A stretch of DNA of 23,785 bases from a virus (lineage: Duplodnaviria; Heunggongvirae; Uroviricota; Caudoviricetes). A model generated the notes under the pieces. It had not been told where the DNA came from. It ran no database searches and saw nothing but the letters and a program-made list of their open reading frames with translations. The DNA lies in the IMG/VR virus record IMGVR_UViG_2734482546_000011, one strand, 5' to 3'. The translations under genes were made by a program, and so were the position numbers. This document shows positions 427 to 23,785 of the stretch, piece by piece (within the stretch, counting starts at the first letter, position 1; every line of letters begins with the position of its first letter).

Positions 427-468
427 GTGATATGAGGGGGCGTAGTCTGCACGATTATCTAAATTGCT

Positions 469-702: not shown

Positions 703-859
703 GAGGTTGCCCTGTATTCAGTGTCGCTGATTTGTATTGTCTGAAGTTGTTTTTACGTTAAGTTGATGCAGATCAATTAATACGATACCTGCGTCATAAT
801 TGATTATTTGACGTGGTTTGATGGCGTAGATGCACGTTGTGACATGTAGATGATAATTA

Positions 860-1080: not shown

Positions 1081-1090
1081 GGAATGAACA

Positions 1091-1610
1091 ATGGAAGTCA
1101 ACAAAAAGCAGCTGGCTGACATTTTCGGTGCGAGTATCCGTACCATTCAGAACTGGCAGGAACAGGGAATGCCCGTTCTGCGAGGCGGTGGCAAGGGTAA
1201 TGAGGTGCTTTATGACTCTGCCGCCGTTATAAGATGGTATGCCGAAAGGGATGCTGAAATTGAGAACGAAAAGCTGCGCCGGGAAGTTGAAGAACTGCGG
1301 CAGGCCAGCGAGACAGATCTCCAGCCAGGGACTATTGAGTACGAACGCCATCGACTTACGCGTGCGCAGGCCGACGCACAGGAGCTGAAAAATGCCAGAG
1401 ACTCCGCTGAAGTGGTGGAAACCGCATTCTGTACTTTCGTGCTGTCGCGGATCGCAGGTGAAATTGCCAGTATTCTCGACGGGATCCCCCTGTCGGTGCA
1501 GCGGCGTTTTCCGGAACTGGAAAACCGACATGTTGATTTCCTGAAACGGGATATCATCAAAGCCATGAACAAAGCAGCCGCGCTGGATGAACTGATACCG
1601 GGGTTGCTGA

Positions 1611-1636
<26 letters not shown>
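1091..1636 (+). CDS. nu1: Terminase small subunit gpNu1, 181 aa
   Basis: Near-identical over its full length to lambda Nu1 as recalled (MEVNKKQLADIFGASIRTIQNWQEQGMPVLRGGGKGNEVLYDS...); N-terminal HTH; directly downstream of cosB. Confidence 0.97.
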
Positions 1637-5317
<3,681 letters not shown>

Positions 5318-5337
<20 letters not shown>

Positions 5338-6637
5338 TCTCCCGCATATTGCCAGCATGGCTTTTAATGAGCCGCTGATGCTTGAACCCGCCTATGCGCG
5401 GGTTTTCTTTTGTGCGCTTGCAGGCCAGCTTGGGATCAGCTGCCTGACGGATGCAGTATCCGGCGACAGCCTGACTGCCGGAGAGGCACCCGCGGCGCTG
5501 GCGTTATCCGGTGATGATGACGGACCACGACAGGCCCGCAGTTATCAGGTAATGAACGGCATCGCCGTGCTGCCGGTGTCCGGCACGCTGGTCAGCCGGA
5601 CGCGGGCGCTGCAGCCGTACTCGGGGATGACCGGTTACAACGGCATTATCGCCCGTCTGCAACAGGCTGCCAGCGACCCGATGGTGGACGGCATTCTGCT
5701 CGATATGGACACACCGGGCGGAATGGTGGCGGGAGCATTTGACTGCGCTGACATCATCGCCCGTGTGCGTGACATAAAGCCGGTATGGGCGCTGGCCAAT
5801 GACATGAACTGCAGCGCAGGTCAGCTGCTTGCCAGTGCCGCCTCCCGGCGTCTGGTCACGCAGACCGCCCGGACAGGCTCCATCGGCGTCATGATGGCTC
5901 ACAGTAATTACGGCGCTGCACTGGAGAAACAGGGCGTGGAAATCACGCTGATTTACAGCGGCAGCCATAAGGTGGATGGCAACCCCTACAGCCATCTACC
6001 GGATGATGTCCGGGAAACATTGCAGTCCCGGATGGATGCAACCCGCCGGATGTTTGCACAGAAGGTGTCGGCATATACCGGCCTGTCCGTGCAGGCTGTG
6101 CTGGATACCGAGGCTGCAGTGTACAGCGGTCAGGAGGCCATTGATGCCGGACTGGCTGATGAACTTGTTAACAGTACCGATGCGATCACCGTCATGCGTG
6201 ATGCACTGGATGCACGTAAATCCCGTCTCTCAGGAGGGCGAATGACCAAAGAGACTCAATCAACAACTGTTTCAGCCACTGCTTCGCAGGCTGACGTTAC
6301 TGGCGTGGTGCAAGCGACGGAGGGCGAGAACGCCAGCGCGGCGCAGCCGGACGTGAACGCGCAGATCACCGCAGCGGTTGCGGCAGAAAACAGTCGCATT
6401 ATGGGGATCCTCAACTGTGAGGAGGCTCACGGACGCGAAGAACAGGCACGCGTGCTGGCCGAAACCCCCGGTATGACCGTGGAAACGGCCCGCCGTATTC
6501 TGGCCGCAGCACCACAGAGTGCACAGACGCGCAGTGACACTGCGCTGGATCGTCTGATGCAGGGGGCACCGGCACCGCTGGCTGCAGGTAACCCGGCATC
6601 TGATGCCGTTAACGATTTGCTGAACACACCAGTGTAA
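5318..6637 (+). CDS. C: Head maturation protease / scaffold gpC, 439 aa, GTG start
   Basis: Matches lambda gpC from (M)TAELRNLPHIASMAFNEPLMLEP.... GTG at 5318-5320 is preceded by a GAGGAGGAG Shine-Dalgarno. Overlaps the 3' end of B in another frame. The track ORF 5183-6637 extends upstream of the real start. Confidence 0.93.
6032..6637 (+). CDS. nu3: Scaffolding protein gpNu3, 201 aa, nested in-frame within the C-terminal part of C
   Basis: In-frame internal ATG at 6032 giving MDATRRMFAQKVSAY..., the same arrangement and length as lambda nu3. Confidence 0.85.
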   Translation: MDATRRMFAQKVSAYTGLSVQAVLDTEAAVYSGQEAIDAGLADELVNSTDAITVMRDALDARKSRLSGGRMTKETQSTTVSATASQADVTGVVQATEGENASAAQPDVNAQITAAVAAENSRIMGILNCEEAHGREEQARVLAETPGMTVETARRILAAAPQSAQTRSDTALDRLMQGAPAPLAAGNPASDAVNDLLNTPV

Positions 6638-6646
6638 GGGATGTTT

Positions 6647-6979
6647 ATGACGAGCAAAGAAACCTTTACCCATTACCAGCCGCTGGGCAATAGTGACCCG
6701 GCTCATACCGCAACCGCGCCCGGCGGATTGAGTGCGAAAGCGCCTGCAATGACCCCGCTGATGCTGGACACCTCCACCCGTAAGCTGGTTGCGTGGGATG
6801 GCACCACCGACGGTGCTGCCGTTGGCATTCTTGCGGTTGCTGCTGACCAGACCAGCACCACACTGACGTTCTACAAGTCCGGCACGTTCCGTTATGAGGA
6901 TGTGCTCTGGCCGGAGGCTGCCAGCGACGAGACGAAAAAACGGACCGTGTTTGCCGGAACGGCAATCAGCATCGTTTAA
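6647..6979 (+). CDS. D: Head decoration protein gpD, 110 aa
   Basis: Matches lambda gpD ([41 protein letters not shown]...). The ATG at 6647 is chosen over 6641 by homology. Confidence 0.95.
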
Positions 6980-7034
6980 CTTTACCCTTCATCACTAAAG
7001 GCCGCCTGTGTGGCTTTTTTTACGGGATTTTTTT

Positions 7035-8060
7035 ATGTCGATGTACACAACCGCCCAGCTGCTGGCGGCAAATGAGCAGAAATTTAAGTTTGATCCGCTG
7101 TTTCTGCGTCTCTTTTTCCGTGAGAGCTATCCCTTCACTACGGAGAAAGTCTATCTCTCACAAATTCCGGGACTGGTAAACATGGCGCTGTACGTTTCGC
7201 CGATTGTTTCCGGTGAGGTTATCCGTTCCCGTGGCGGCTCCACCTCTGAATTTACGCCGGGATATGTCAAACCCAAGCATGAGGTGAATCCGCAGATGAC
7301 CCTGCGTCGCCTGCCGGATGAAGATCCGCAGAATCTGGCGGACCCGGCTTACCGCCGCCGTCGCATCATCATGCAGAACATGCGTGACGAAGAGCTGGCC
7401 ATTGCTCAGGTCGAAGAGATGCAGGCAGTTTCTGCCGTGCTCAAGGGCAAATACACCATGACCGGTGAAGCCTTCGATCCGGTTGAGGTGGATATGGGCC
7501 GCAGTGCGGCGAACAACATCACACAGTCCGGCGTCACGGAGTGGAGCAAGCGTGACAAGTCCACGTATGACCCGACCGACGATATCGAAGCCTACGCGCT
7601 GAACGCCAGCGGTGTGGTGAATATCATCGTGTTTGACCCGAAAGGCTGGGCGCTGTTCCGTTCCTTCAAAGCCGTCAAGGAGAAGCTGGATACCCGTCGC
7701 GGCTCTCATTCCGAGCTGGAGACAGCGGTAAAAGACCTGGGCAAAGCGGTGTCCTATAAGGGAATGTATGGCGATGTGGCCATCGTCGTGTATTCCGGAC
7801 AGTACGTGGAAAACGGCGTCAAAAAGAACTTCCTGCCGGACAACACGATGGTGCTGGGGAACACTCAGGCTCGCGGTCTGCGCACCTATGGCTGCATTCA
7901 GGATGCGGACGCACAGCGCGAAGGCATTAACGCTTCTGCCCGTTACCCGAAAAACTGGGTGACCACCGGCGATCCGGCGCGTGAGTTCACCATGATTCAG
8001 TCAGCACCGCTGATGCTGCTGGCTGATCCTGATGAGTTCGTGTCCGTTCAACTGGCGTAA
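7035..8060 (+). CDS. E: Major capsid protein gpE, 341 aa
   Basis: Matches lambda gpE (MSMYTTAQLLAANEQKFKFDPLFLRLFFRESYPF...). The track ORF starts 27 nt upstream (7008); the start is set by homology. Confidence 0.96.
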   Translation: MSMYTTAQLLAANEQKFKFDPLFLRLFFRESYPFTTEKVYLSQIPGLVNMALYVSPIVSGEVIRSRGGSTSEFTPGYVKPKHEVNPQMTLRRLPDEDPQNLADPAYRRRRIIMQNMRDEELAIAQVEEMQAVSAVLKGKYTMTGEAFDPVEVDMGRSAANNITQSGVTEWSKRDKSTYDPTDDIEAYALNASGVVNIIVFDPKGWALFRSFKAVKEKLDTRRGSHSELETAVKDLGKAVSYKGMYGDVAIVVYSGQYVENGVKKNFLPDNTMVLGNTQARGLRTYGCIQDADAQREGINASARYPKNWVTTGDPAREFTMIQSAPLMLLADPDEFVSVQLA

Positions 8061-8062
8061 TC

Positions 8063-8089
8063 ATGGCCCTTCGGGGCCATTTTCTCTCT
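8063..8089 (+). promoter_or_regulatory. Intercistronic GC-rich hairpin (ATGGCCC-TTCG-GGGCCAT, UUCG tetraloop) followed by a U/C-rich tract; possible mRNA-stability or attenuation element between E and FI
   Basis: Perfect 7-bp inverted repeat with a TTCG loop 3 nt after the E stop codon, followed by TTTCTCTCT and then the GGAGG Shine-Dalgarno of FI. Confidence 0.35.
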
Positions 8090-8101
8090 GTGGAGGAGTT
8101 C

Positions 8102-8500
8102 ATGACGAAAGATGAACTGATTGCCCGTCTTCAGGAGCTGGGTGAGCAATTGAACCGCGATGTCAGTTTGACGGGAACGAAAGAAGAACTGGCGCTTCGT
8201 GTGGCAGAGCTGGAAGAAGAGCTTGATGACACGGATGAAACTGCCGGTCAGGACACCCCTCTCAGCCGGGAAAATGTGCTGACCGGGCATGAAAATGAGG
8301 TGGTATCAGCGCAGCCGGATACCGTGATTCAGGATACGGCTGAACTGGTCACGGTCGTGGCACTGGTGACGCTGCATACTGATGCACTTCACGCCACGCG
8401 GGATAAACCTGTGGCATTTGTGCTGCCGGGAACGGCGTTTCGTGTCTCTGCCGGTGTGGCAGCCGAAATGACAGAGCGCGGCCTGGCCAGAATGCAATAA
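8102..8500 (+). CDS. FI: DNA-packaging accessory protein gpFI, 132 aa
   Basis: Matches lambda FI (MTKDELIARLQELGEQLNRDVSLTGTKEELALRVAELEEELDDTDE...). GGAGG Shine-Dalgarno at 8093-8097. Confidence 0.95.
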   Translation: MTKDELIARLQELGEQLNRDVSLTGTKEELALRVAELEEELDDTDETAGQDTPLSRENVLTGHENEVVSAQPDTVIQDTAELVTVVALVTLHTDALHATRDKPVAFVLPGTAFRVSAGVAAEMTERGLARMQ

Positions 8501-8511
8501 CGGGAGGCGCT

Positions 8512-8865
8512 GTGGCTGATTTCGATAACCTGTTCGATGCTGCCATTGCCCGCGCCGATGAAACGATACGCGGGTACATGGGAACGTCAGCCACCATGAC
8601 ATCCGGTGAGCAGTCAGGTGCGGTGATACGTGGTGTTTTTGATGACCCTGAAAATATCAGCTATGCCGGACAGGGCGTGCGCGTTGAAGGCTCCAGCCCG
8701 TCCCTGTTTGTCCGGACTGATGAGGTGCGGCAGCTGCGGCGTGGAGACACGCTGACCATCGGTGAGGAAAATTTCTGGGTAGATCGGGTTTCGCCGGATG
8801 ATGGCGGAAGTTGTCATCTCTGGCTTGGACGGGGCGTACCGCCTGCCGTTAACCGTCGCCGCTGA
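8512..8865 (+). CDS. FII: Head-tail joining protein gpFII, 117 aa, GTG start
   Basis: Matches lambda FII (MADFDNLFDAAIARADETIRGYMGTSAT...). GGGAGG Shine-Dalgarno at 8502-8507. Confidence 0.95.
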   Translation: MADFDNLFDAAIARADETIRGYMGTSATMTSGEQSGAVIRGVFDDPENISYAGQGVRVEGSSPSLFVRTDEVRQLRRGDTLTIGEENFWVDRVSPDDGGSCHLWLGRGVPPAVNRRR

Positions 8866-8876
8866 AAGGGGGATGT

Positions 8877-9455
8877 ATGGCCATAAAAGGTCTTGAGCAG
8901 GCCGTTGAAAACCTCAGCCGTATCAGCAAAACGGCGGTGCCCGGTGCCGCCGCAATGGCCATTAACCGCGTTGCTTCATCCGCGATATCGCAGTCTGCGT
9001 CACAGGTTGCCCGTGAGACAAAGGTACGCCGGAAACTGGTAAAGGAAAGGGCCAGGCTGAAAAGGGCCACGGTCAAAAATCCGCAGGCCAGAATCAAAGT
9101 TAACCGGGGGGATTTGCCCGTAATCAAGCTGGGTAATGCGCGGGTTGTCCTGTCCCGCCGCAGGCGTCATAAAAAGGGGCAGCGTTCATCCCTGAAAGGT
9201 GGCGGCAGCGTGCTTGTGGTGGGTAACCGTCGTATTCCCGGCGCGTTTATTCAGCAACTGAAAAACGGCCGGTGGCATGTTATGCAGCGTGTGGCCGGGA
9301 AAAACCGTTACCCCATTGATGTGGTGAAAATCCCGATGGCGGTGCCGCTGACCACGGCGTTTAAACAGAATATTGAACGGATACGGCGTGAACGTCTTCC
9401 GAAAGAGCTGGGCTATGCGCTGCAGCATCAACTGAGAATGGTAATAAAGCGATGA
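8877..9455 (+). CDS. Z: Tail completion protein gpZ, 192 aa
   Basis: Matches lambda gpZ (MAIKGLEQAVENLSRISKTAVPGAAAMAINRVASSAISQSASQVARETK...). Confidence 0.95.
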   Translation: MAIKGLEQAVENLSRISKTAVPGAAAMAINRVASSAISQSASQVARETKVRRKLVKERARLKRATVKNPQARIKVNRGDLPVIKLGNARVVLSRRRRHKKGQRSSLKGGGSVLVVGNRRIPGAFIQQLKNGRWHVMQRVAGKNRYPIDVVKIPMAVPLTTAFKQNIERIRRERLPKELGYALQHQLRMVIKR

Positions 9456-9847
9456 AACATACTGAACTCCGTGCAGCCGTACTGGATGCACTGGAGAAGC
9501 ATGACACCGGGGCGACGCTTTTTGATGGTCGCCCCGCTGTTTTTGATGAGGAAGATTTTCCGGCAATTGCCGTTTATCTCACCGGCGCTGAATACACGGG
9601 CGAAGAGCTGGACAGCGATACCTGGCAGGCGGAGCTGCATATTGAAGTTTTCCTGCCTGCTCAGGTGCCGGATTCAGAGCTGGATTCGTGGATGGAGTCC
9701 CGGATTTATCCTGTGATGAGCGATATCCCGGCACTGTCAGATTTGATCACCAGTATGGTGGCCAGCGGCTATGACTACCGGCGCGACGATGATGCGGGCC
9801 TGTGGAGTTCAGCCGATCTGACTTATGTCATTATCTATGAAATGTGA
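9452..9847 (+). CDS. U: Tail terminator protein gpU, 131 aa
   Basis: Matches lambda gpU ([22 protein letters not shown]...). ATGA overlap with Z. Confidence 0.95.
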
Positions 9848-9854
9848 GGACGCT

Positions 9855-10595
9855 ATGCCTGTACCAAATCCTACAATGCCGGTGAAAGGTGCCGGGACCA
9901 CCCTGTGGGTTTATAAGGGGAGCGGTGACCCTTATGCGAACCCGCTTTCAGACGTTGACTGGTCGCGTCTGGCAAAAGTTAAAGACCTGACGCCCGGCGA
10001 ACTGACCGCTGAGTCCTATGACGACAGCTATCTCGATGATGAAGATGCAGACTGGACTGCGACCGGGCAGGGGCAGAAATCTGCCGGAGATACCAGCTTC
10101 ACGCTGGCGTGGATGCCCGGAGAGCAGGGGCAGCAGGCGCTGCTGGCGTGGTTTAATGAAGGTGATACCCGTGCCTATAAAATCCGCTTCCCGAACGGCA
10201 CGGTCGATGTGTTCCGTGGCTGGGTCAGCAGTATCGGTAAGGCGGTGACGGCGAAGGAGGTGATTACCCGCACGGTGAAGGTCACCAATGTGGGACGTCC
10301 GTCGATGGCAGAAGATCGCAGCACGGTGACGGCGACGACCGGCATGACGGTGACACCCGCCAGTGCTTCCGTAGTGAAAGGGCAGAGCACCACGCTGACC
10401 GTGGCATTCCAGCCGGATGGCGCAACCGACAAGAGCTTCCGTGCGGTGTCTGCGGATAAAACAAAAGCCACCGTGTCGGTCAGTGGTATGACCATCACCG
10501 TGAAAGGTGTTGCTGCAGGCAAGGTCAACATTCCGGTCGTATCTGGTAATGGTGAGTTTGCTGCGGTTGCAGAAATCAACGTCACCGCCAGTTAA
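9855..10595 (+). CDS. V: Major tail tube protein gpV, 246 aa
   Basis: Matches lambda gpV ([36 protein letters not shown]...) with the C-terminal Ig-like domain. The track ORF starts upstream (9825); the start is set by homology. Confidence 0.95.
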
Positions 10596-10610
10596 TCCGG
10601 AGAGTCAGCG

Positions 10611-11033
10611 ATGTTCCTGAAAACCGAATCATTTGAACATAACGGTGTGACCGTCACGCTTTCTGAACTGTCAGCCCTGCAGCGTATTGAGCATCTCGAC
10701 CTGATGAAACGGCAGGCAGAACAGGCGGAGTCAGACAGCAACCGGAAGTTTACTGTGGAAGACGCCATCAGAACCGGCGCTTTTGTGGTTGCGATGTCCC
10801 TGTGGCATAACCATCCGAAGAAGACGCAGATGCCGTCCATGAATGAAGCCGTTAAACAGATTGAGCAGGAAGTGCTTACCACCTGGCCCACAGAGGCAAT
10901 TTCTCATGCTGAAAACGTGGTGTACCGGCTGTCCGGTATGTATGAGTTTGTGGTGAATGATGCTCCTGAACAGGCAGAGGACGCCGGGCCTGCAGAGCCT
11001 GTTTCTGCGGGAAAGTGTTCGACGGTGAGCTGA
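10611..11033 (+). CDS. G: Tail assembly chaperone gpG, 140 aa
   Basis: Matches lambda gpG (MFLKTESFEHNGVTVTLSELSALQRIEHLDLMKRQAEQAE...). Confidence 0.95.
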   Translation: MFLKTESFEHNGVTVTLSELSALQRIEHLDLMKRQAEQAESDSNRKFTVEDAIRTGAFVVAMSLWHNHPKKTQMPSMNEAVKQIEQEVLTTWPTEAISHAENVVYRLSGMYEFVVNDAPEQAEDAGPAEPVSAGKCSTVS

Positions 11034-11449
11034 GTTTTGCCCTGAAACTGGCGCGTGAGATGGGGCGACCCGACTGGCGCGCCATGCTTGCCGGGATGTC
11101 ATCCACGGAGTATGCCGACTGGCACCGCTTTTACAGTACCCATTATTTTCATGATGTTCTGCTGGATATGCACTTTTCCGGGCTGACGTACACCGTGCTC
11201 AGCCTGTTTTTCAGCGATCCGGAGATGCATCCGCTGGATTTCAGTCTGCTGAACCGGCGCGAGGCTGACGAAGAGCCTGAAGATGATGTGCTGATGCAGA
11301 AAGCGGCAGGGCTTGCCGGAGGTGTCCGCTTTGGCCCGGACGGGAATGAAGTTATCCCCGCTTCCCCGGATGTGGCGGACATGACGGAGGATGACGTAAT
11401 GCTGATGACAGTATCAGAAGGGATCGCAGGAGGAGTCCGGTATGGCTGA
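10611..11449 (+). CDS. T: Tail assembly chaperone gpG-T fusion made by a programmed -1 ribosomal frameshift at 11009-11015; T-frame portion 11015-11449
   Basis: Slippery heptamer G GGA AAG at 11009-11015 near the 3' end of G. The -1 frame continues open as VFDGELSFALKLAREMGRPDWRAM..., which matches lambda T. The T frame has no independent start with an RBS. Confidence 0.88.
11009..11015 (+). other. Programmed -1 frameshift slippery site GGGAAAG (recoding signal)
   Basis: Canonical X XXY YYZ heptamer in the G frame, positioned where the conserved G/G-T frameshift of long-tailed phages occurs. Confidence 0.85.
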
Positions 11450-14003
11450 ACCGGTAGGCGATCTGGTCGTTGATTTGAGTCTGGATGCGGCCAGATTTGA
11501 CGAGCAGATGGCCAGAGTCAGGCGTCATTTTTCCGGTACGGAAAGTGATGCGAAAAAAACAGCGGCAGTCGTTGAACAGTCGCTGAGCCGACAGGCGCTG
11601 GCTGCACAGAAAGCGGGGATTTCCGTCGGGCAGTATAAAGCCGCCATGCGTATGCTGCCTGCACAGTTCACCGACGTGGCCACGCAGCTTGCAGGGGGGC
11701 AGAATCCCTGGCTGATCCTGCTGCAACAGGGTGGTCAGGTTAAGGACTCCTTCGGCGGGATGATCCCCATGTTCAGGGGGCTTGCCGGCGCGATCACCCT
11801 GCCGATGGTGGGGGCCACCTCGCTGGCGGTGGCGACCGGTGCGCTGGCGTATGCCTGGTATCAGGGCAACTCAACCCTGTCCGATTTCAACAAAACGCTG
11901 GTCCTTTCCGGTAATCAGGCGGGACTGACGGCAGATCGTATGCTGGTCCTGTCCAGAGCCGGGCAGGCGGCAGGGCTGACGTTTAACCAGACCAGCGAGT
12001 CACTCAGCGCACTGGTTAAGGCGGGGGTAAGCGGTGAGGCTCAGATTGCGTCCATCAGCCAGAGTGTGGCGCGTTTCTCCTATGCATCCGGCGTGGAGGT
12101 GGACAAGGTCGCTGAAGCCTTCGGGAAGCTGACCACAGACCCGACGTCGGGGCTGACGGCGATGGCACGCCAGTTCCATAACGTGACGGCGGAGCAGATT
12201 GCGTATGTTGCTCAGTTGCAGCGTTCCGGCGATGAAGCCGGGGCATTGCAGGCGGCGAACGAGGCCGCAACGAAAGGGTTTGATGACCAGACCCGCCGCC
12301 TGAAAGAGAACATGGGCACGCTGGAGACCTGGGCAGACAGGACTGCACGTGCATTCAAATCCATGTGGGATGCGGTGCTGGATATTGGTCGTCCTGATAC
12401 CGCGCAGGAGATGCTGATTAAGGCAGAGGCTGCGTTTAAGAAAGCAGACGACATCTGGAATCTGCGCAAGGATGATTATTTCGTTAACGATGAAGCACGG
12501 GCGCGTTACTGGGATGATCGTGAAAAAAAACGCCTGGAGCGGGATGCAGCCCAAAAGAGGGTAGATCAACAGCGTCAACAGGACAAAAATGCGCAGCAGC
12601 AGAGCGATACCGAAGCGTCACGGCTGAAATATACCGAAGAGGCGCAGAAGGCTTACGAACGGCTGCAGACGCCGCTGGAGAAATATACCGCCCGTCAGGA
12701 AGAACTGAACAAGGCACTGAAAGACGGAAAAATCCTGCAGGCAGATTACAACACGCTGATGGCGGCGGCGAAAAAGGATTATGAAGCGACGCTGAAAAAG
12801 CCGAAACAGTCCGGCGTGAAGGTGTATGCGGGCGATCGTCAGGAAGACAGTGCTCATGCGGCCCTGCTGACGCTTCAGGCAGAACTCCGGACGCTGGAGA
12901 AGCATGCCGGAGCGAATGAGAAAATCAGCCAGCAGCGCCGGGATTTGTGGAAGGCAGAAAGTCAGTTCGCGGTACTGGAGGAGGCGGCACAACGTCGCCA
13001 GCTGTCCGCACAGGAGAAATCCCTGCTGGCGCATAAAGACGAGACGCTGGAGTACAAACGCCAGCTGGCTGCACTTGGTGACAAGGTTACGTATCAGGAG
13101 CACCTGAATGCGCTGGCGCAGCAGGCGGATAAATTCGCACAGCAGCAACGGGCAAAACGGGCAGCCATTGATGCGAAAAACCGGGGGCTGACTGACCGGC
13201 AGGCAGCGCGGGAAGCCACGGAACAGCGCCTGAAGGAACAGTATGGCGATAATCCTCTGGCGCTGAATAACGTCATGTCAGAGCAGAAAAAGACCTGGGC
13301 GGCTGAAGACCAGCTTCGCGGGAGCTGGATGGCAGGCCTGAAGTCCGGCTGGAGTGAGTGGGAAGAGAGCGCCACGGACAGTATGTCACAGGTTAAAAGT
13401 GCAGCCACGCAGACCTTTGATGGTATTGCACAGAATATGGCGGCGATGCTGACCGGCAGTGAACAGAACTGGCGCAGCTTCACCCGCTCCGTGCTGTCCA
13501 TGATGACAGAAATTCTGCTTAAGCAGGCAATGGTGGGGATTGTCGGGAGTATCGGCAGCGCCATTGGCGGGGCTGTTGGTGGCGGCGCATCCGCGTCAGG
13601 TGGTACAGCCATTCAGGCCGCTGCGGTGAAATTCCATTTTGCAACCGGGGGATTTACGGGAACCGGCGGCAAATATGAGCCAGCGGGGATTGTTCACCGT
13701 GGTGAATTTGTCTTCACGAAGGAGGCAACCAGCCGGATTGGCGTGGGGAATCTCTACCGGCTGATGCGCGGCTATGCGGAAGGTGGTTATGTGGGCGGTG
13801 CCGGAAGTCCGGCGCAGATGCGGCGGGCTGAAGGCATTAATTTTAATCAGAACAATCACGTGGTGATTCAGAACGACGGTACGAATGGTCTGCCAGGTCC
13901 ACAGATGATGAAGGCCGTGTATGACATGGCCCGCAAGGGTGCCCGTGATGAAATTCAGACACAGATGCGTGATGGTGGCCTGTTCTCCGGAGGTGGACGA
14001 TGA
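11442..14003 (+). CDS. H: Tail tape measure protein gpH, 853 aa
   Basis: Same length as lambda gpH and matching sequence (MAEPVGDLVVDLSLDAARFDEQMARVRRHF...). Coiled-coil-rich middle, Gly-rich C-terminal segment. 8-nt overlap with T. Confidence 0.96.
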   Translation: MAEPVGDLVVDLSLDAARFDEQMARVRRHFSGTESDAKKTAAVVEQSLSRQALAAQKAGISVGQYKAAMRMLPAQFTDVATQLAGGQNPWLILLQQGGQVKDSFGGMIPMFRGLAGAITLPMVGATSLAVATGALAYAWYQGNSTLSDFNKTLVLSGNQAGLTADRMLVLSRAGQAAGLTFNQTSESLSALVKAGVSGEAQIASISQSVARFSYASGVEVDKVAEAFGKLTTDPTSGLTAMARQFHNVTAEQIAYVAQLQRSGDEAGALQAANEAATKGFDDQTRRLKENMGTLETWADRTARAFKSMWDAVLDIGRPDTAQEMLIKAEAAFKKADDIWNLRKDDYFVNDEARARYWDDREKKRLERDAAQKRVDQQRQQDKNAQQQSDTEASRLKYTEEAQKAYERLQTPLEKYTARQEELNKALKDGKILQADYNTLMAAAKKDYEATLKKPKQSGVKVYAGDRQEDSAHAALLTLQAELRTLEKHAGANEKISQQRRDLWKAESQFAVLEEAAQRRQLSAQEKSLLAHKDETLEYKRQLAALGDKVTYQEHLNALAQQADKFAQQQRAKRAAIDAKNRGLTDRQAAREATEQRLKEQYGDNPLALNNVMSEQKKTWAAEDQLRGSWMAGLKSGWSEWEESATDSMSQVKSAATQTFDGIAQNMAAMLTGSEQNWRSFTRSVLSMMTEILLKQAMVGIVGSIGSAIGGAVGGGASASGGTAIQAAAVKFHFATGGFTGTGGKYEPAGIVHRGEFVFTKEATSRIGVGNLYRLMRGYAEGGYVGGAGSPAQMRRAEGINFNQNNHVVIQNDGTNGLPGPQMMKAVYDMARKGARDEIQTQMRDGGLFSGGGR

Positions 14004-14329
14004 AAACCTTCCGCTGGAAAGTGAAACCCGGTATGGATGTGGCTTCGGCCCCTTCTGTAAGAAAGGTGCGCTTTGGTGATGGCTATTCCCAGCGAGCGCC
14101 TGCCGGGCTGAATGCCAACCTGAAAACGTACAGCGTGACGCTTTCTGTCCCCCGTGAGGAGGCCATGGTACTGGAGTCGTTTCTGGAAGAGCACGGGGGC
14201 TGGAAAGCCTTTCTGTGGACGCCGCCTTATGAGTGGCGGCAGATAAAGGTGACCTGCGCAAAATGGTCGTCGCGGGTCAGTATGCTGCGTGTTGAGTTCA
14301 GCGCAGAGTTTGAACAGGTGGTGAACTGA
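14000..14329 (+). CDS. M: Tail tip assembly protein gpM, 109 aa
   Basis: Matches lambda gpM (MKTFRWKVKPGMDVAS...). ATGA overlap with H. Confidence 0.95.
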   Translation: MKTFRWKVKPGMDVASAPSVRKVRFGDGYSQRAPAGLNANLKTYSVTLSVPREEAMVLESFLEEHGGWKAFLWTPPYEWRQIKVTCAKWSSRVSMLRVEFSAEFEQVVN

Positions 14330-15027
14330 TGCAGGATATCCGGCAGGAAACACTGAATGAATGCACCCGTGCGGAGCAGTCGGCCAGCGTGGTGCTCTGG
14401 GAAATCGATCTGACAGAGGTCGGTGGAGAACGTTATTTTTTCTGTAATGAGCAGAACGAAAAAGGTGAGCCGGTCACCTGGCAGGGGCGACAGTATCAGC
14501 CGTATCCCATTCAGGGGAGTGGTTTTGAACTGAATGGCAAAGGCACCAGTACGCGCCCCACGCTGATGGTTTCTAACCTGTACGGTATGGTCACCGGGAT
14601 GGCGGAAGATCTACAGAGTCTGGTCGGCGGAACGGTGGTCCGGCGTAAGGTTTACGCCCGTTTTCTGGATGCGGTGAACTTCGTCAACGGAAACAGTGAC
14701 GCCGATCCGGAGCAGGAGGTGATCAGCCGCTGGCGCATTGAGCAGTGCAGCGAACTGAGCGCGGTGAGTGCCTCTTTTGTACTGTCCACGCCGACGGAAA
14801 CAGATGGCGCTGTTTTTCCGGGACGTATCATGCTGGCCAACACCTGCACCTGGACCTATCGCGGCGATGAGTGCGGTTATCACGGTCCGGCGGTCGCGGA
14901 TGAATATGACCAGCCAACGTCCGACATCACGAAGGATAAATGCAGCAAATGCCTGAGTGGCTGTAAGTTTCGCAATAACGTCGGCAACTTTGGCGGCTTC
15001 CTTTCCATTAACAAACTTTCGCAGTAA
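14329..15027 (+). CDS. L: Tail tip protein gpL, 232 aa
   Basis: Matches lambda gpL (MQDIRQETLNECTRAEQSASVVLWEIDL...). C-terminal Cys cluster (CTWTYRGDECGY...CSKCLSGC) consistent with the Fe-S site reported for gpL. TGATG overlap with M. Confidence 0.95.
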   Translation: MQDIRQETLNECTRAEQSASVVLWEIDLTEVGGERYFFCNEQNEKGEPVTWQGRQYQPYPIQGSGFELNGKGTSTRPTLMVSNLYGMVTGMAEDLQSLVGGTVVRRKVYARFLDAVNFVNGNSDADPEQEVISRWRIEQCSELSAVSASFVLSTPTETDGAVFPGRIMLANTCTWTYRGDECGYHGPAVADEYDQPTSDITKDKCSKCLSGCKFRNNVGNFGGFLSINKLSQ

Positions 15028-15032
15028 ATCCC

Positions 15033-15776
15033 ATGACAGAGACAGAATCAGCGATTCTGGCGCACGCCCGGCGATGTGCTCCAGCGGAGTCGTGCGGCTT
15101 CGTGGTAAGAACGCCGGAGGGGGAAAGATATTTCCCCTGCGTGAATATCTCCGGTGAGCCGGAGGCGTATTTCCGTATGTCGCCGGAAGACTGGCTGCAG
15201 GCAGAGATGCAGGGTGAGATTGTGGCACTGGTCCACAGCCACCCCGGTGGTCTGCCCTGGCTGAGTGAGGCCGACCGGCGGCTGCAGGTGCAGAGTGATT
15301 TGCCGTGGTGGCTGGTCTGCCGGGGGGCGATTCACAAGTTCCGCTGTGTGCCACATCTTACCGGGCGGCGCTTTGAGCACGGGGTGACGGACTGTTACAC
15401 GCTGTTCCGGGATGCTTACCATCTGGCGGGGATTGAGATGCCGGATTTTCATCGTGAGGATGACTGGTGGCGTCACGGTCAGAATCTCTATCTGGATAAT
15501 CTGGAGGCCACAGGGCTGTATCAGGTGCCGTTGTCAGCGGCGCAGCCGGGCGATGTGCTGCTGTGCTGTTTTGGTTCATCGGTGCCGAATCATGCCGCCA
15601 TTTACTGTGGTGACGGCGAGCTGCTGCACCATATTCCTGAACAACTGAGCAAACGAGAGAGGTATACCGACAAATGGCAGCGACGCACACACTCCCTCTG
15701 GCGTCACCGGGCATGGCACGCATCTGCCTTTACGGGGATTTGCAACGATTTGGCCGCCGCATCGACCTTCGTGTGA
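15033..15776 (+). CDS. K: Tail tip assembly protein gpK (JAB/MPN-type metalloprotease plus NlpC/P60-like region), 247 aa as the longest ORF; the 199-aa start traditionally annotated in lambda corresponds to the ATG at 15177
   Basis: ORF opens 6 nt after the L stop. Contains HSHPGGLPWLSEAD, a canonical HxHx7Sx2D JAMM motif, with candidate upstream Glu residues only in the extended N-terminus. A GGAGG Shine-Dalgarno precedes the internal ATG at 15177. Overlaps I by 103 nt in a different frame. Confidence 0.85.
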   Translation: MTETESAILAHARRCAPAESCGFVVRTPEGERYFPCVNISGEPEAYFRMSPEDWLQAEMQGEIVALVHSHPGGLPWLSEADRRLQVQSDLPWWLVCRGAIHKFRCVPHLTGRRFEHGVTDCYTLFRDAYHLAGIEMPDFHREDDWWRHGQNLYLDNLEATGLYQVPLSAAQPGDVLLCCFGSSVPNHAAIYCGDGELLHHIPEQLSKRERYTDKWQRRTHSLWRHRAWHASAFTGICNDLAAASTFV

Positions 15777-16345
15777 AAACGGGTGCCGAAGCCATCCGGG
15801 CGATGGCCACACAGCTCCCTGCGTTTCGTCAGAAGCTGAGCGACGGCTGGTATCAGGTGCGTATTGCCGGGCAGGATGTTAGCACGTCCGGATTAACGGC
15901 ACAGTTACATGAGGCTCTGCCTGACGGCGCTGTGATTCATATTGTTCCCAGAGTCGCCGGGGCCAAGTCAGGTGGTGTATTCCAGATTGTCCTGGGAGCA
16001 GCCGCCATTGCCGGATCATTCTTTACCGCCGGAGCCACCCTTGCAGCATGGGGGGCTGCCATTGGTGCCGGTGGTATGACCGGCATTCTGTTTTCTCTCG
16101 GTGCCAGTATGGTGCTCGGCGGTGTGGCTCAGATGCTGGCACCGAAAGCCAGAACTCCCCGCACACAGACAACGGATAACGGTAAGCAGAACACCTATTT
16201 CTCCTCACTGGATAACATGGTTGCCCAGGGCAATGTTATGCCTGTTCTGTATGGTGAAATGCGCGTGGGGTCACGTGTGGTATCTCAGGAGATCAGCACG
16301 GCAGACGAAGGGGACGGTGGTCAGGTTGTGGTGATTGGTCGCTGA
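15674..16345 (+). CDS. I: Tail tip assembly protein gpI, 223 aa
   Basis: Matches lambda gpI (MAATHTLPLASPGMARICLYGDLQRFGRRIDLRVKTGAEAIRAM...). Hydrophobic Gly/Ala-rich central segment. Confidence 0.95.
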   Translation: MAATHTLPLASPGMARICLYGDLQRFGRRIDLRVKTGAEAIRAMATQLPAFRQKLSDGWYQVRIAGQDVSTSGLTAQLHEALPDGAVIHIVPRVAGAKSGGVFQIVLGAAAIAGSFFTAGATLAAWGAAIGAGGMTGILFSLGASMVLGGVAQMLAPKARTPRTQTTDNGKQNTYFSSLDNMVAQGNVMPVLYGEMRVGSRVVSQEISTADEGDGGQVVVIGR

Positions 16346-16405
16346 TGCAAAATGTTTTATGTGAAATCGCCTCCGGGCGGTTTTATCGTTTATGGAGCAT
16401 GACGA

Positions 16406-19400
16406 ATGGGTAAAGGCAGCAGTAAGGGGCATACCCCGCGCGAAGCGAAGGACAACCTGAAGTCCACGCAGCTGCTGAGTGTGATCGATGCCATCAGCGA
16501 AGGGCCGGTTGAAGGTCCGGTGGATGGATTAAAAAGCGTGCTGCTGAACAGTACGCCGGTGCTGGACAATGAGGGGAATACCAACATCTCCGGCGTCACG
16601 GTGGTGTTCCGGGCAGGTGAGCAGGAGCAGTCACCGCCGGAGGGATTTGAATCCTCCGGCTCCGAGACGGTGCTGGGTACGGAAGTGAAATATGACACGC
16701 CGATCACCCGGACCATCACGTCGGCAAACATTGACCGACTGCGTTTTACCTTCGGTGTACAGGCACTGGTGGAAACCACCTCAAAGGGAGACAGGAATCC
16801 GTCTGAAGTTCGCCTGCTGGTTCAGATACAGCGTAACGGTGGCTGGGTGACGGAAAAAGACATCACCATTAAGGGCAAAACCACCTCGCAGTATCTGGCC
16901 TCGGTGGTGGTGGATAACCTGCCGCCGCGCCCGTTTAATATCCGGATGCGCAGAATGACGCCGGACAGCACCACAGACCAGCTGCAGAACAAAACGCTCT
17001 GGTCGTCATACACCGAAATCATCGATGTGAAACAGTGCTACCCGAACACGGCACTGGTCGGCGTACAGGTGGATTCGGAGCAGTTCGGCAGCCAGCAGGT
17101 GAGCCGTAATTATCATCTTCGCGGGCGCATTCTGCAGGTGCCGTCGAACTATAATCCGCAGACGCGGCAATACAGCGGTATCTGGGACGGAACGTTAAAA
17201 CCGGCATACAGCAACAACATGGCCTGGTGTCTGTGGGATATGCTGACCCATCCGCGCTATGGCATGGGGAAACGTCTTGGTGCGGCAGATGTGGATAAAT
17301 GGGCGCTGTATGTCATCGGCCAGTACTGTGACCAGTCGGTGCCGGACGGCTTTGGCAGCACGGAGCCGCGCATCACCTGTAATGCCTGGCTGACCACACA
17401 GCGCAAGGCGTGGGATGTGCTCAGTGATTTCTGCTCGGCGATGCGCTGTATGCCGGTATGGAACGGGCAGACGCTGACGTTCGTGCAGGACCGACAGTCG
17501 GATAAGGTGTGGGCCTATAACCGCAGTAATGTGGTGATGCCGGATGATGGCGCGCCGTTCCGCTACAGTTTCAGCGCCCTGAAAGACCGCCATAATGCCG
17601 TTGAGGTGAACTGGATTGACCCGGATAACGGCTGGGAGACGGCGACAGAGCTTGTGGAGGATACGCAGGCCATTGTCCGTTACGGTCGTAACGTCACGAA
17701 GATGGATGCCTTTGGCTGTACCAGCCGGGGGCAGGCACACCGCGCCGGGCTGTGGCTGATTAAAACGGAACTGCTGGAGACGCAGACCGTGGATTTCAGC
17801 GTGGGTGCTGAAGGGCTTCGTCATGTACCGGGCGATGTCATTGAAATCTGCGATGATGACTATGCCGGTATCCGCACCGGCGGGCGCGTGCTGGCGGTGA
17901 ACAGCCAGACCCGGACGCTGACGCTCGACCGTGAAATCACGCTGCCATCCTCCGGCACCACGCTGATAAGCCTGGTTGACGGGCAGGGGAATCCGGTCAG
18001 CGTGGAGGTCCAGTCCGTCACCGACGGCGTGAAGGTAAAAGTGAGCCGTGTTCCTGACGGTGTTGCTGAATACAGCGTGTGGGGGCTGAAGCTGCCGACG
18101 CTGCACCAGCGATTGTTCCGCTGCGTGAGNNNNNNNNNNNNNNNNNNNNNNNNNNNNNNNNNNNNNNNNNNNNNNNNNNNNNNNNNNNNNNNNNNNNNNN
18201 NNNNNNNNNNNNNNNNNNNNNNNNNNNNNNNNNNNNNNNNNNNNNNNNNNNNNNNNNNNNNNNNNNNNNNNNNNNNNNNNNNNNNNNNNNNNNNNNNNNN
18301 NNNNNNNNNNNNNNNNNNNNNNNNNNNNNNNNNNNNNNNNNNNNNNNNNNNNNNNNNNNNNNNNNNNNNNNNNNNNNNNGCTGACAGTCCGGGCAGTAAA
18401 TGCGTGGGGGCAGCAGGGCGATCCGGCGTCGGTATCGTTCCGGATTGCCGCACCGGCAGCGCTGTCGCGGATTGAGCTGACGCCGGGCTATTTTCAGATA
18501 ACCGCCACGCCGCATCTTGCGGTTTATGATCCGACGGTACAGTTTGAGTTCTGGTTCTCGGAAAAGCGGATTGCGGATATCAGGCAGGTTGAAACCACAG
18601 CACGCTATCTTGGCACGGCGCTGTACTGGATAGCCGCCAGTATCAATATCAAACCGGGCCATGATTATTACTTTTATATCCGCAGTGTGAACACCGTTGG
18701 CAAATCGGCATTCGTGGAGGCTGTTGGTCAGCCGAGTGATGATGCATCCGGTTATCTGGATTTTTTCAAAGGCGAGATAGGGAAAACCCATCTGGCTCAG
18801 GAGCTGTGGACGCAGATTGATAACGGTCAGCTTGCGCCTGACCTGGCTGAAATCAGGACGTCCATTACGGATGTCAGCAATGAAATCACGCAGACCGTCA
18901 ATAAGAAACTGGAAGACCAGAGTGCGGCAATTCAGCAGATACAGAAGGTTCAGGTTGATACAAATAATAACCTGAACAGCATGTGGGCTGTGAAGCTGCA
19001 GCAGATGCAGGACGGACGCCTTTATATCGCGGGTATTGGTGCCGGTATTGAGAACACCCCTGACGGCATGCAGAGTCAGGTGCTGCTGGCGGCGGACAGG
19101 ATTGCGATGGTTAATCCTGCGAATGGCAACACAAAACCGATGTTTGTTGGTCAGGGCGATCAGATATTCATGAACGACGTGTTCCTGAAACGCCTGACGG
19201 CCCCCACCATTACCAGCGGTGGAAATCCATCGGCATTTTCCCTGACTCCGGACGGAAAGCTGACCGCTAAAAATGCGGATATCAGTGGCAGTGTGAATGC
19301 GAACGCCGGGACGCTCAACAATGTCACGGTAAATGAAAACTGTACGATTAAGGGCATGCTGGAGGCGACTCAGGTCAGAGGTGACTTCGTTAAAGCTGTA

Positions 19401-19811
19401 TCCAAATCATTTCCGAAACAGGCTGGTACGTGGGGTAACACGGAAACACCAAACGGGACGGTTACAGTCACCATAAGCGATGATCATAACTTTGACCGCC
19501 AGATTATTATTCCGCCCATTATTTTTAACGGTATAGCGTATGACGATCCGGGGAGCGGAAATAACCCAGGAGGCACGCGATACACGGGTTATGGTTTTGA
19601 AGTTCGCAAAAACGGCGTATTAATCGCATCCAGAGAAACTAAAGGTGCCATTCCCGGTAGTTACAGTGCAGTTATTGATATGCCTAGTGGTGGTGGTAGC
19701 GTCACTCTGGAGTTTAAGATTTTCCAGAAAGGCAATCAGGGGGCAGGCAATATCACCGACTGTACGGTGATTGTGACCAAAAAAGCGGCTTCCGGCATCA
19801 GTATTCGTTGA
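16406..19811 (+). CDS. J: Central tail fibre / tail tip attachment protein gpJ (host specificity protein), interrupted by an N run at 18130-18369
   Basis: N-terminal roughly 575 aa and the segment after the gap (…[25 protein letters not shown]…[27 protein letters not shown]) match lambda J. Stop TGA at 19809-19811. Frame before the gap (start 16406) and frame after it (ending at 19811) differ, so the true length of the gap is not a multiple of 3 as represented. Confidence 0.88.
18130..18369. other. Run of 240 N (unknown or masked sequence) inside J
   Basis: Literal n characters in the sequence. Confidence 1.
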
Positions 19812-19833
19812 AATATTTATAACCCCAATAAAT

Positions 19834-19857
19834 GGCGTCAGGAATGACGCCTTTTTT
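19834..19857 (+). terminator. Rho-independent terminator downstream of J
   Basis: GGCGTCA-GGAA-TGACGCC hairpin followed by TTTTTT, 23 nt after the J stop. Confidence 0.75.
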
Positions 19858-19881
19858 ATTGCAGAAAAGCGAGAGGTAATT

Positions 19882-20762
19882 ATGCGTAAAGTTTGTGCAG
19901 CCATTTTGTCCGCAGCCATTTGCCTGGCCGTATCCGGTGCGCCTGCATGGGCGTCTGAACATCAGTCCACGCTGAGCGCGGGGTATCTTCATGCCCGGAC
20001 CAACGTTCCCGGCAGTGATGATCTGAACGGGATTAACGTGAAATACCGTTATGAGTTTACGGATACGCTGGGGCTGGTGACGTCATTCAGCTATGCAGGA
20101 GACAAGAATCGCCAGCTGACCCGTTACAGCGATACCCGCTGGCATGAAGATTCCGTGCGTAACCGCTGGTTCAGCGTGATGGCGGGGCCGTCTGTGCGCG
20201 TGAATGAATGGTTCAGCGCGTATGCGATGGCGGGTGTGGCTTACAGCCGTGTGTCGACTTTCTCCGGGGATTATCTCCGCGTAACTGACAACAAGGGGAA
20301 AACGCACGACGTGCTGACCGGAAGTGATGACGGTCGCCACAGCAACACGTCTCTGGCGTGGGGAGCTGGCGTGCAGTTTAACCCGACCGAATCCGTGGCC
20401 ATTGATATTGCTTATGAAGGCTCNNNNNNNNNNNNNNNNNNNNNNNNNNNNNNNNNNNNNNNNNNNNNNNNNNNNNNNNNNNNNNNNNNNNNNNNNNNNN
20501 NNNNNNNNNNNNNNNNNNNNNNNNNNNNNNNNNNNNNNNNNNNNNNNNNNNNNNNNNNNNNNNNNNNNNNNNNNNNNNNNNNNNNNNNNNNNNNNNNNNN
20601 NNNNNNNNNNNNNNNNNNNNNNNNNNNNNNNNNNNNNNNNNNNNNNNNNNNNNNNNNNNNNNNNNNNNNNNNNNNNNNNNNNNNNNNNNNNNNNNNNNNN
20701 NNNNNNNNNNNNNNNNNNNNNNNNNNNNNNNNNNNNNNNNNNNNNTCGGTTATAAATTCTGA
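19882..20762 (+). CDS. lom: Outer-membrane protein Lom (Ail/Lom/OmpX family beta-barrel; lysogenic-conversion moron), 3' part interrupted by an N run
   Basis: Signal peptide MRKVCAAILSAAICLAVSGAPAWA and the following 180 aa match lambda Lom. After the N run the sequence GGT TAT AAA TTC TGA (GYKF stop) matches the Lom C-terminus but in a different frame from the 5' part. GAGAGG Shine-Dalgarno at 19871-19876. Confidence 0.85.
20424..20745. other. Run of 322 N inside the 3' part of lom
   Basis: Literal n characters. Confidence 1.
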
Positions 20763-20788
20763 TTAGCCAGGTAACACAGTGTTATGAC

Positions 20789-20816
20789 AGCCCGCCGGTT
20801 CAGGCGGGCTTTTTTG
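20789..20816 (+). terminator. Rho-independent terminator downstream of lom
   Basis: AGCCCGCC-GGTTCA-GGCGGGCT hairpin followed by TTTTTT, about 27 nt after the lom stop. Confidence 0.8.
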
Positions 20817-20826
20817 TGGGGTGAAT

Positions 20827-23785
20827 ATGGCAGTAAAGATTTCAGGTGTACTGAAAGACGGCACAGGAAAACCGGTACAGAACTGCACAATCCAGCTGAA
20901 AGCAAAACGTAACAGCACCACGGTGGTGGTGAACACGCTGGCCTCAGAAAATCCGGATGAAGCCGGGCGTTACAGCATGGACGTTGAGTACGGTCAGTAC
21001 AGCGTTATTCTGTTGGTGGAAGGATTCCCGCCGTCACATGCCGGGACCATCACCGTGTATGAAGATTCCCGACCCGGTACGCTGAATGATTTTCTCGGTG
21101 CCATGACGGAGGATGATGCCCGTCCGGAGGCTCTGCGCCGTTTTGAACTGATGGTGGAAGAGGTGGCGCGTAACGCGTCCGCGGTGGCACAGAACACGGC
21201 AGCCGCGAAGAAGTCAGCCAGTGATGCCGGCACATCTGCCCGTGAGGCGGCAACCCATGCGACTGATGCTGCAGGCTCAGCGCGTGCAGCCAGCACGTCA
21301 GCCGGACAGGCCGCGACTTCGGCTCAGGAGGCGTCTTCCAGCGCAGGAACGGCATCAACAAAGGCCACTGAAGCATCAAAAAGTGCTGCCGCTGCAGAGT
21401 CCTCAAAAAGCGCGGCGGCCACCAGTGCCGGTGCGGCGAAAACGTCAGAAACGAATGCTGCAGCGTCACAAAAATCAGCAGCCACTTCTGCATCCACTGC
21501 GACAACGAAAGCGTCAGAAGCCGCCACTTCAGCCAGAGATGCGGCGGCCTCCAAAGAGGCGGCAAAATCATCAGAAACGAACGCCTCCACAAGCGCCAGC
21601 AGTGCAGCCTCCTCGGCAACGGCGGCAGGAAATTCCGTGAAGGCGGCAAAAACGTCCGAGACGAATGCTAAGTCTTCTGAAACGGCAGCGGAACAGAGCG
21701 CCTCAGCTGCGGCAGACTCTGAGACAGCAGCTGCATCATCGGCCCGTGAGGCGTCCATTAAGGCAGAGGAGGCAGCAGTCAGTGCCACCGCCGCCGGAAA
21801 ATCGGCAGAAAGCGCCGCATCATCCGCTTCAACAGCCACAACGAAGGCTGGCGAAGCCACTGAACAGGCCAGCGCAGCAGCGAGGTCTGCTTCCGCAGCG
21901 AAGACATCCGAAACGAACGCGAAAGCGTCGGAAACCAGCGCAGAATCCTCAAAAACGGCTGCCGCATCGTCCGCCAGTTCGGCGGCGTCATCGGCATCAT
22001 CTGCGTCTGCTTCAAAAGATGAGGCGACCAGACAGGCGTCAGCAGCGAGGGGCAGCGCCACGACGGCATCCACGAAGGCGACAGAGGCTGCTGGCAGTGC
22101 GGCAGCGGCNNNNNNNNNNNNNNNNNNNNNNNNNNNNNNNNNNNNNNNNNNNNNNNNNNNNNNNNNNNNNNNNNNNNNNNNNNNNNNNNNNNNNNNNNNN
22201 NNNNNNNNNNNNNNNNNNNNNNNNNNNNNNNNNNNNNNNNNNNNNNNNNNNNNNNNNNNNNNNNNNNNNNNNNNNNNNNNNNNNNNNNNNNNNNNNNNNN
22301 NNNNNNNNNNNNNNNNNNNNNNNNNNNNNNNNNNNNNNNNNNNNNNNNNNNNNNNNNNNAGTTCAGCTCAGCAGTGCGACTAACAGCACTTCCGAGTCAC
22401 AGGCGGCAACGCCAAAAGCCGTTAAGGCCGCGTATGACCTGGCTAACGGGAAATACACCGCACAGGACGCTACGACAGCACAAAAAGGAATTGTCCAGCT
22501 CAGTAGTGCAACCAACAGCACATCTGAAACGCTTGCTGCGACACCGAAAGCAGTGAAAGCAGCTAATGACAATGCGAATGGTCGGGTACCTTCTGCCCGT
22601 AAGGTGAATGGTAAGGCGCTTTCAGCGGATATAACACTGACGCCGAAAGATATTGGTACGCTTAACTCAACAACAATGTCATTCAGCGGTGGTGCTGGTT
22701 GGTTCAAATTAGCAACGGTAACCATGCCACAGGCGAGTTCTGTTGTTTCAATTACGTTGATTGGTGGCGCTGGATTTAACGTGGGGTCACCTCAACAGGC
22801 AGGTATATCTGAACTTGTTTTACGTGCAGGTAATGGTAATCCGAAGGGGATTACTGGTGCTTTATGGCAGCGCACATTGACAGGGTTTACAAATTTTGCC
22901 TGGGTTAATACATCTGGTGATACTTACGATATTTACGTTGCAATCGGAAATTATGCGACTGGTGTAAATATTCAATGGGATTATACCAGTAATGCCAGCG
23001 TGACGATTCATACGTCACCAGCATATTCTGCTAATAAGCCGGAAGGGTTAACGGACGGTACAGTTTATTCACTCTATACGCCATCAGAGCAGTTTTATCC
23101 GCCTGGCGCACCAATCCCGTGGCCATCAGATACCGTTCCGTCTGGCTATGCCCTGATGCAGGGGCAGGCTTTTGACAAATCTGCATACCCGAAACTTGCA
23201 GCGGCTTATCCGTCAGGCGTGATCCCTGATATGCGTGGCTGGACGATTAAGGGCAAACCTGCCAGTGGTCGGGCCGTATTGTCTCAGGAACAGGACGGCA
23301 TTAAATCGCATACCCACAGCGCCAGCGCATCCAGTACGGATTTGGGGACGAAAACCACATCGTCGTTTGATTACGGCACTAAATCCACGAATAACACTGG
23401 TGCGCATACCCATAGTTTAAGTGGCAGCACGAATGCAGCTGGTAATCACAGCCATAGAGATGGCCGTCGATTTAACCCCAGTGTTTTTAAAGATACTTAT
23501 CAATATGGTTATACAAGCTCAGGTCAAAATACCTGGGGTGTACAAGGCTCAGTAGGTATGTCTACGGGGTGGTTAGCGAATACCAGTATAGATGGTAATC
23601 ATAGCCATTCACTGTCCGGCACAGCAGCATCTGCAGGTGCACACGCGCATACTGTCGGTATTGGTGCTCATACGCACTCCGTTGCGATTGGTTCACATGG
23701 ACACACCATCACCGTTAACGCTGCTGGTAACGCGGAAAACACCGTCAAAAACATCGCATTTAACTATATTGTGAGGCTTGCATAA
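20827..23785 (+). CDS. stf: Side tail fibre protein Stf, interrupted by an N run at 22110-22359; stop TAA at the window end
   Basis: N-terminus [37 protein letters not shown]... matches lambda Stf. Long Ala/Ser/Thr-rich shaft with recurring AAKTSETNA units. After the gap, in another frame, a duplicated [22 protein letters not shown] fibre motif and a C-terminal region with HxH repeats ending [11 protein letters not shown]. The expected tfa gene would lie beyond the window. Confidence 0.85.
22110..22359. other. Run of 250 N inside stf
   Basis: Literal n characters. Confidence 1.

Follow-up and report, generated by a model that had tools for sequence, protein, structure and literature searches.

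A mosaic gene J with a 434-type receptor-binding domain in a lambda-like prophage, and OmpC as its predicted receptor

The viral record IMGVR_UViG_2734482546_000011 (Caudoviricetes; 23,785 nucleotides, referred to as a whole as the window) holds the left, or morphogenesis, arm of a lambda-like prophage, and we have analysed its gene J, the gene of the tail tip and central fibre. The divergence of this J from lambda J is made up of two independent modules parted by a conserved block, not of one continuous C-terminus. The first is a shaft module unlike that of either lambda or 434, and the second, comprising the receptor-binding domain (RBD) and the downstream gene lom, is 434-like. An RBD of the 434 type points to OmpC rather than LamB as the most likely porin, and we therefore read J as a mosaic with a 434-type RBD for which OmpC is the predicted receptor, with a probability of about 0.78.

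Modules of gene J

A run of 250 N interrupts J at 18130..18379. The letters resume at 18380, and the frame that begins at 18381 is open for 476 codons until a stop codon that ends at 19811. This fragment (476 amino acids, 1431 nucleotides), in which residue 1 corresponds to nucleotide 18381, was aligned to J of lambda (J02459), 434 (OL657226) and phi458 (OP434518), and identity was counted per domain, with boundaries following the lambda scheme of Ge and Wang (PMC11101478).

All of J lies on the plus strand. The fragment opens with FNIII-2, the second Ig-like domain (residues 1-118, 18381..18734), with identities of 95% (lambda), 97% (434) and 99% (phi458) and a match to Pfam Ig_J_second (E = 1.4e-38). 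Identity then falls to 44% with lambda and 46% with 434 in the equivalent of the long alpha-helical shaft (residues 119-200, 18735..18980), which is longer by 28 residues, and stands at 58% with each of them in the upper central straight fibre (residues 201-260, 18981..19160; within Pfam Phage_Tail_Tip). Both of these segments are 100% identical in amino acid sequence to phi458 and to the gpJ of a prophage of E. coli MB56. The lower central straight fibre (residues 261-324, 19161..19352) is the conserved block, with 91% identity to lambda, 89% to 434 and 98% to phi458. The fragment closes with the Ig-like RBD (residues 325-476, 19353..19808, with the stop codon to 19811), assigned to the h434 type, which shares 40% of its residues with lambda, 95% with 434 and 97% with phi458.

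A sliding comparison in 90-nucleotide windows places the boundaries sharply. Up to about 18740 the window is at least 90% identical to lambda and to 434 alike; identity then drops to 27-68% until about 19150, with 27-34% reached in the first fall, and recovers to about 90% at 19150-19330. From about 19330 to the stop codon it is 37-60% to lambda and 87-99% to 434. Such abrupt drops between conserved flanks (about 90-99%) argue for replacement of modules and not for drift, and they bear out the typical lambdoid mosaicism proposed in the initial annotation of this region. That annotation had J lambda-like from the N run as far as the motif FVEAVG, which holds at 95-97% identity, and all of the peptides it quoted are present in the translation of 18381-19811. 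It had placed the feature at 18370-19811; sequence and stop codon do extend to 19811, but 18370-18379 is still N. It had also described a C-terminus diverged from about 18740 except for a conserved block; the divergence and the block are both there, but the divergence is in two separate modules. An alignment to lambda J had been proposed in which identity above 95% over the C-terminal 250 amino acids would speak against divergence, and the figure obtained for the last 250 amino acids is far lower, at 56% (134/239).

Upstream of the N run, the N-terminal 574 codons of J, encoding the hub domains (16406..18129), are 97% identical in amino acid sequence to residues 1-574 of lambda J and contain Pfam FNIII-A_GpJ and Phage-tail_3. 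The C-terminal part is matched by Ig_J (its last 25 residues only), Ig_J_second, Phage_Tail_Tip and Ig_GpJ_C, and all Pfam matches in J exceed the curated cut-offs, with the exception of the truncated Ig_J. The chains of the solved lambda J structures PDB 8iyk and 8xcg also match (E = 5e-170). Moreover, J follows H, M, L, K and I and precedes lom and stf, as does the gene of lambda gpJ. The fragment is thus the 3′ 1.4 kb of the tail-tip and central-fibre gene of a lambda-like prophage, with the architecture of lambda gpJ.

Taking these comparisons together, the hub and FNIII domains are of the lambda/434 type, and the shaft and upper fibre derive from another, longer allele (+28 amino acids) common to phi458, cdtI and many J proteins of Stx phages. 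The lower fibre is conserved, and the C-terminal RBD together with the downstream lom represents the 434 (h434) allele.

The receptor-binding domain

The RBD is identical to that of 434 J at 145/152 positions (95%) with no indels. Against residues 986-1132 of lambda J it is identical at 56 of 141 positions (40%) with 17 gap positions, and a lambda-type, LamB-binding RBD is rejected at that level of identity. The domain is matched by Pfam Ig_GpJ_C (E = 1e-25), and at the nucleotide level 19464-19677 is 99% identical to 434. Relative to lambda, indels fall at lambda positions 1011/1012, 1043-1049, 1078 and 1099-1114. Four indel hotspots (1012, 1049, 1077 and 1107) have been described among natural J homologues, whose specificity lineages they set apart (PMC6646904), and the indel sites of this RBD coincide with all four of them, the window having the 434 length at each. 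The seven differences from 434 are, in fragment numbering and with the window residue first, S343A, Q347K, A348V, N358D, I447V, Q449H and G454R. By their identity to this RBD, phage records fall into two groups (168 below 60%, 74 at 90% or more and none at 60-90%), which indicates that the 434-type RBD is a discrete class. We assign the RBD to the h434-type allele on the strength of these sequence comparisons.

A further breakpoint was observed inside the RBD, near nucleotide 19460. Positions 18654-19460 of the window are 100% identical to phi458 in nucleotide sequence; downstream of the breakpoint, 19464-19722 is 99% identical to 434 and just 88-93% to phi458.

Other known tips were also compared. 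FhuA is the receptor of phi80, N15 and HK022. No match to phi80 J was found in either the RBD or the lower fibre, and the gene 3′ of J is lom, not the gp22-gp23-cor arrangement annotated in phi80, which rejects a J tip of the phi80 type. The tip of Gifsy-1 J was rejected likewise, since the RBD shows no meaningful similarity to it. The comparison with J alleles of the OmpC and FhuA types that had been suggested for this gene hence yields a match to 434 and none to the tips of phi80 or Gifsy-1.

The predicted receptor

Replacing lambda J by the tail-fibre gene of 434 moves lambda from LamB to OmpC, which is the receptor of 434 (PMC3509688, PMC11101478). By homology to 434, the RBD described here would bind OmpC, and the suggestion of the initial annotation that this phage probably uses an outer-membrane receptor other than that of lambda gains support from the 95% identity to an allele that redirects lambda in this way. 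In lambda, J forms a trimeric central fibre, and the bottom loops of its three Ig-like RBDs enter the trimeric porin LamB; once bound, the RBDs move apart, shaft residues 809-861 refold and the tail opens (PMC11101478). By analogy, the central fibre of the present prophage would be a trimer of J whose RBDs reach with their bottom loops into a trimeric porin, and contact with the receptor would lead to refolding of the shaft and fibre and to opening of the tail tip.

Several points weigh against the OmpC assignment or the intactness of J. Six of the seven RBD substitutions relative to 434, at the equivalents of lambda positions 1004-1017 and 1099-1104, adjoin hotspots 1012 and 1107. In phage 21, one mutation in J can be enough to gain a further porin (PMC11336670), so specificity may have shifted here. 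Neither length nor frame is preserved by the N run in J, and J could not be followed there as a single intact frame. Lastly, a literature search on phages that carry the long shaft together with the 434-type RBD (phi458, Ayreon, ev099, ev243, mEp332 and the PhiR series) found no receptor assay.

Alternative explanations

The first alternative, which we regard as unlikely, is that the RBD descends from the 434 type and has been shifted by its seven substitutions towards a different general porin, for example OmpF, or towards certain natural OmpC alleles over the OmpC of K-12. The clustering of the substitutions beside two hotspots is in its favour, as is the micro-mosaicism within the RBD. Moreover, few J mutations suffice to add OmpF as a receptor in lambda (PMC6646904), or OmpC and then OmpF in phage 21 (PMC11336670). 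However, the RBD remains near-identical to that of 434 without any indels, and several of the variant residues are common in the class; MB56 gpJ ends in NQGAGNI as does J of the window, and the RBDs of Evi and 2B8 are 99.3% identical to this one. The sharing of variant residues with other members of the class points to polymorphism that is neutral, or fine-tuning, and stays within a single receptor class.

A second alternative, less probable again, is that J is a decayed remnant, interrupted within the region of the N run, and that its divergent C-terminus is without function. The reading frame ahead of the run, from 16406, is offset by one base from the frame that follows, from 18381. The run covers the equivalent of lambda J residues 575-689 (about 115 codons), and with its 250 N it is about 92-95 nucleotides shorter than the homologous stretch, which measures about 342-345 nucleotides in lambda, phi458 and E. 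coli MB56. Against decay, none of the three N runs in the window (18130-18379, 250 N; 20424-20745, 322 N; 22110-22359, 250 N) preserves length, and in 434 and phi458 the end of lom has only about 41 nucleotides where the second run stands. Since all of the N runs disagree in length with the close relatives, the frame offset is most simply explained as an artefact of masking or scaffolding. In addition, no stop codon interrupts either visible part of J, their identity to intact J proteins of 1165 amino acids is 96-99%, and the head and tail genes upstream are all lambda-like in length.

That the phage still uses LamB, with the divergence of the tip reflecting neutral drift, is very improbable: the fold and domain family are indeed common to lambda J, but the 40% identity of the RBD, the indels at all four specificity hotspots, the abrupt fall in nucleotide identity from at least 90% to 37-60% between conserved flanks and the near-identity to an OmpC-using allele all speak against it.

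The lom and stf region

The 434-like block extends beyond J. It takes in the RBD together with the intergenic terminator and lom and reaches, at 93% nucleotide identity, the beginning of stf, as far as 21248; within it, 18980-20423 aligns to 434 as one piece (91% nucleotide identity). On the plus strand, J is followed at 19834..19851 by a terminator-like hairpin, GGCGTCAGGAATGACGCC, and then TTTTTT, and a terminator is annotated at the equivalent place in 434. The next gene on this strand is lom (19882..20423), which encodes an Ail/Lom outer-membrane protein of the 434 type (Pfam Ail_Lom, E = 7e-109) and is cut by the second N run. Its product is 97% identical to 434 Lom (174/180) and 39% to lambda Lom.

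A second terminator-like hairpin with a T run follows lom at 20789-20810 and matches the terminator annotated there in 434. The side tail fibre gene stf (20821-23785) contains the Pfam domain phage_tail_N, Phage_fiber_2 repeats and a Collar domain, and is interrupted by the third N run. It is 87% identical to lambda stf in nucleotide sequence at its start and in its last 150 nucleotides and is diverged between. Its stop is the last codon of the window, and no tfa gene is visible. Lambda Stf binds OmpC (PMC7291167). If both assignments hold, the phage might direct its side fibres and its central fibre at one and the same porin.

Layout of the window

Upstream of the N run in J, positions 914-18129 of the window are collinear with lambda 13-17228 in a single block of 97% nucleotide identity, and the open reading frames (ORFs) upstream of J have the lengths of those of lambda from Nu1 through I. 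The statement in the initial annotation that the upstream part of J is lambda-like holds at this 97%, with the refinement that the same 17.2 kb is equally close to 434 (97% nucleotide identity to each). Positions 1-426 lie upstream of the place, at about 914, where lambda homology has its cos-proximal start, and contain on the minus strand an ORF of 141 amino acids that matches DUF1398 (E = 3e-43). ORFs called across the N runs are partly artefacts (16406..18475, 19882..20766, 20821..22383 and 21665..23785).

Comparison with named relatives

The J of 434 (UMO75286.1, from OL657226) shares with the window an RBD 95% identical and free of indels, hub and FNIII domains at 97% nucleotide identity and a lower fibre at 89%, and in 434 J is likewise followed by a terminator and lom of the same type, with Lom at 97%. 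It is unlike the present J in the shaft and upper fibre (18735-19160; 46-58%), in its length of 1137 amino acids as against about 1165 here (+28) and in the seven RBD substitutions.

The organisation of the whole gene recurs in the J proteins of phi458 (OP434518), E. coli MB56 (WP_257181960.1), cdtI, ev099, Ayreon, mEp332 and several Stx2 phages, which combine the long shaft with the 434-type RBD in a protein of 1165 amino acids and are 95-98.5% identical to the window over the 1431 nucleotides of the fragment. Over the whole allele, identity is 98.5% to the intact 1165-residue gpJ of the MB56 prophage, 97.3% to phi458 and 95-96% to cdtI, ev099, Ayreon, mEp332 and several Stx2 phages. In both phi458 and MB56 J measures 3498 nucleotides. 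J of phi458 differs from the window at 7 of the 476 amino acids, and over 19464-19722 the window is nearer to 434.

Lambda J, which binds LamB, belongs to the same family with the same order of domains and is similar over its first 574 amino acids (97%), FNIII-2 (95%) and the lower fibre (91%). The mechanism is likely to be the same, with a trimeric fibre whose RBD loops enter a trimeric porin. It is unlike the present J in the RBD (40%, with four indel sites) and in a shaft that is 44% identical and 28 amino acids shorter, and the Lom proteins share only 39%. Finally, phi330, a siphophage of enterohaemorrhagic E. coli, and Gifsy-1 of Salmonella also have lambda-like central fibres with an OmpC-binding tip (PMC12502783, PMC12312913). 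They are unlike the present J in that the RBD of phi330 is reported to share 35-40% of its residues with its counterparts in 434 and lambda (PMC12502783) and that of Gifsy-1 has no meaningful match to the RBD of the window.

The shaft module

A HMMER comparison shows about 30 residues of the shaft (fragment residues 147-176, approximately) to be without a counterpart in lambda J, and from fragment residue 151 onward it aligns to a distant J-like fibre of solved structure, PDB 9l9p_S. The longer form of the shaft is found in J proteins of distant proteobacterial phages as well, and for this reason the short shaft of lambda and 434 may be the derived state.

A single-sequence AlphaFold2 (AF2) model of the monomer, made with no alignment, consists of a helix, a break of 5 residues at NGQLA and a long helix with a predicted local distance difference test (pLDDT) score of 86-94, the mean pLDDT being 74; this is weakly consistent with a helical segment. 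A coiled coil of four heptads within the 28 extra residues was not supported, as hydrophobic occupancy of the a and d positions did not differ significantly from that of shuffled sequences (P = 0.17).

Wherever it occurs, the long shaft forms a discrete module, joined here to a 434-type RBD. It is conceivable that a longer shaft might let the central fibre extend further through O-antigen or capsule or, alternatively, might alter the threshold at which the shaft refolds and the tail opens. The RBD loop substitutions, for their part, might tune binding to particular OmpC alleles. We offer as speculation, and consider doubtful, that the longer shaft is functionally matched to natural hosts and that shaft length is a second, unrecognised determinant of host range in J besides the RBD.

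Distribution of the modules and implications for lambda-like prophages

The two modules occur together and apart. Among phage records the long shaft was found in 65 at 95% amino acid identity or more and the 434-type RBD in the 74 given above, and in 25 records both modules lie together at a single place that accounts for at least 80% of the 1431-nucleotide query. In Lambda_ev066 the long shaft (98.6%) precedes an unrelated RBD (39.6%), and the short shaft is joined to the present RBD (96-99%) in 434, Evi, 2B8, ev207, mEp460 and PhiR49_1. J is therefore a case of ordinary module swapping between related phages. The combination of alleles described here is already known, being present in sequenced phages and in many E. 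coli genomes, and the 434 host-range allele itself was recognised decades ago.

Of 5426 complete E. coli genomes, 1169 contain the whole allele (at least 80% of the fragment covered) and 2092 (about 39%) the 434-type RBD when searched alone. Lambda's own RBD was found in 96 (about 2%), never below 99% identity; the five such genomes among the matches listed are of laboratory strains, with K-12 and B derivatives and DE3 lysogens among them. The LamB-type tip of lambda is rare in natural genomes, and natural lambda-like prophages usually carry another tip. Should the present prophage be inducible, its host range should follow OmpC rather than LamB, although the practical consequence of this is small. 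With respect to the tip of J, lambda is the odd one out, and divergence from lambda at this place is the expected state of a natural prophage.

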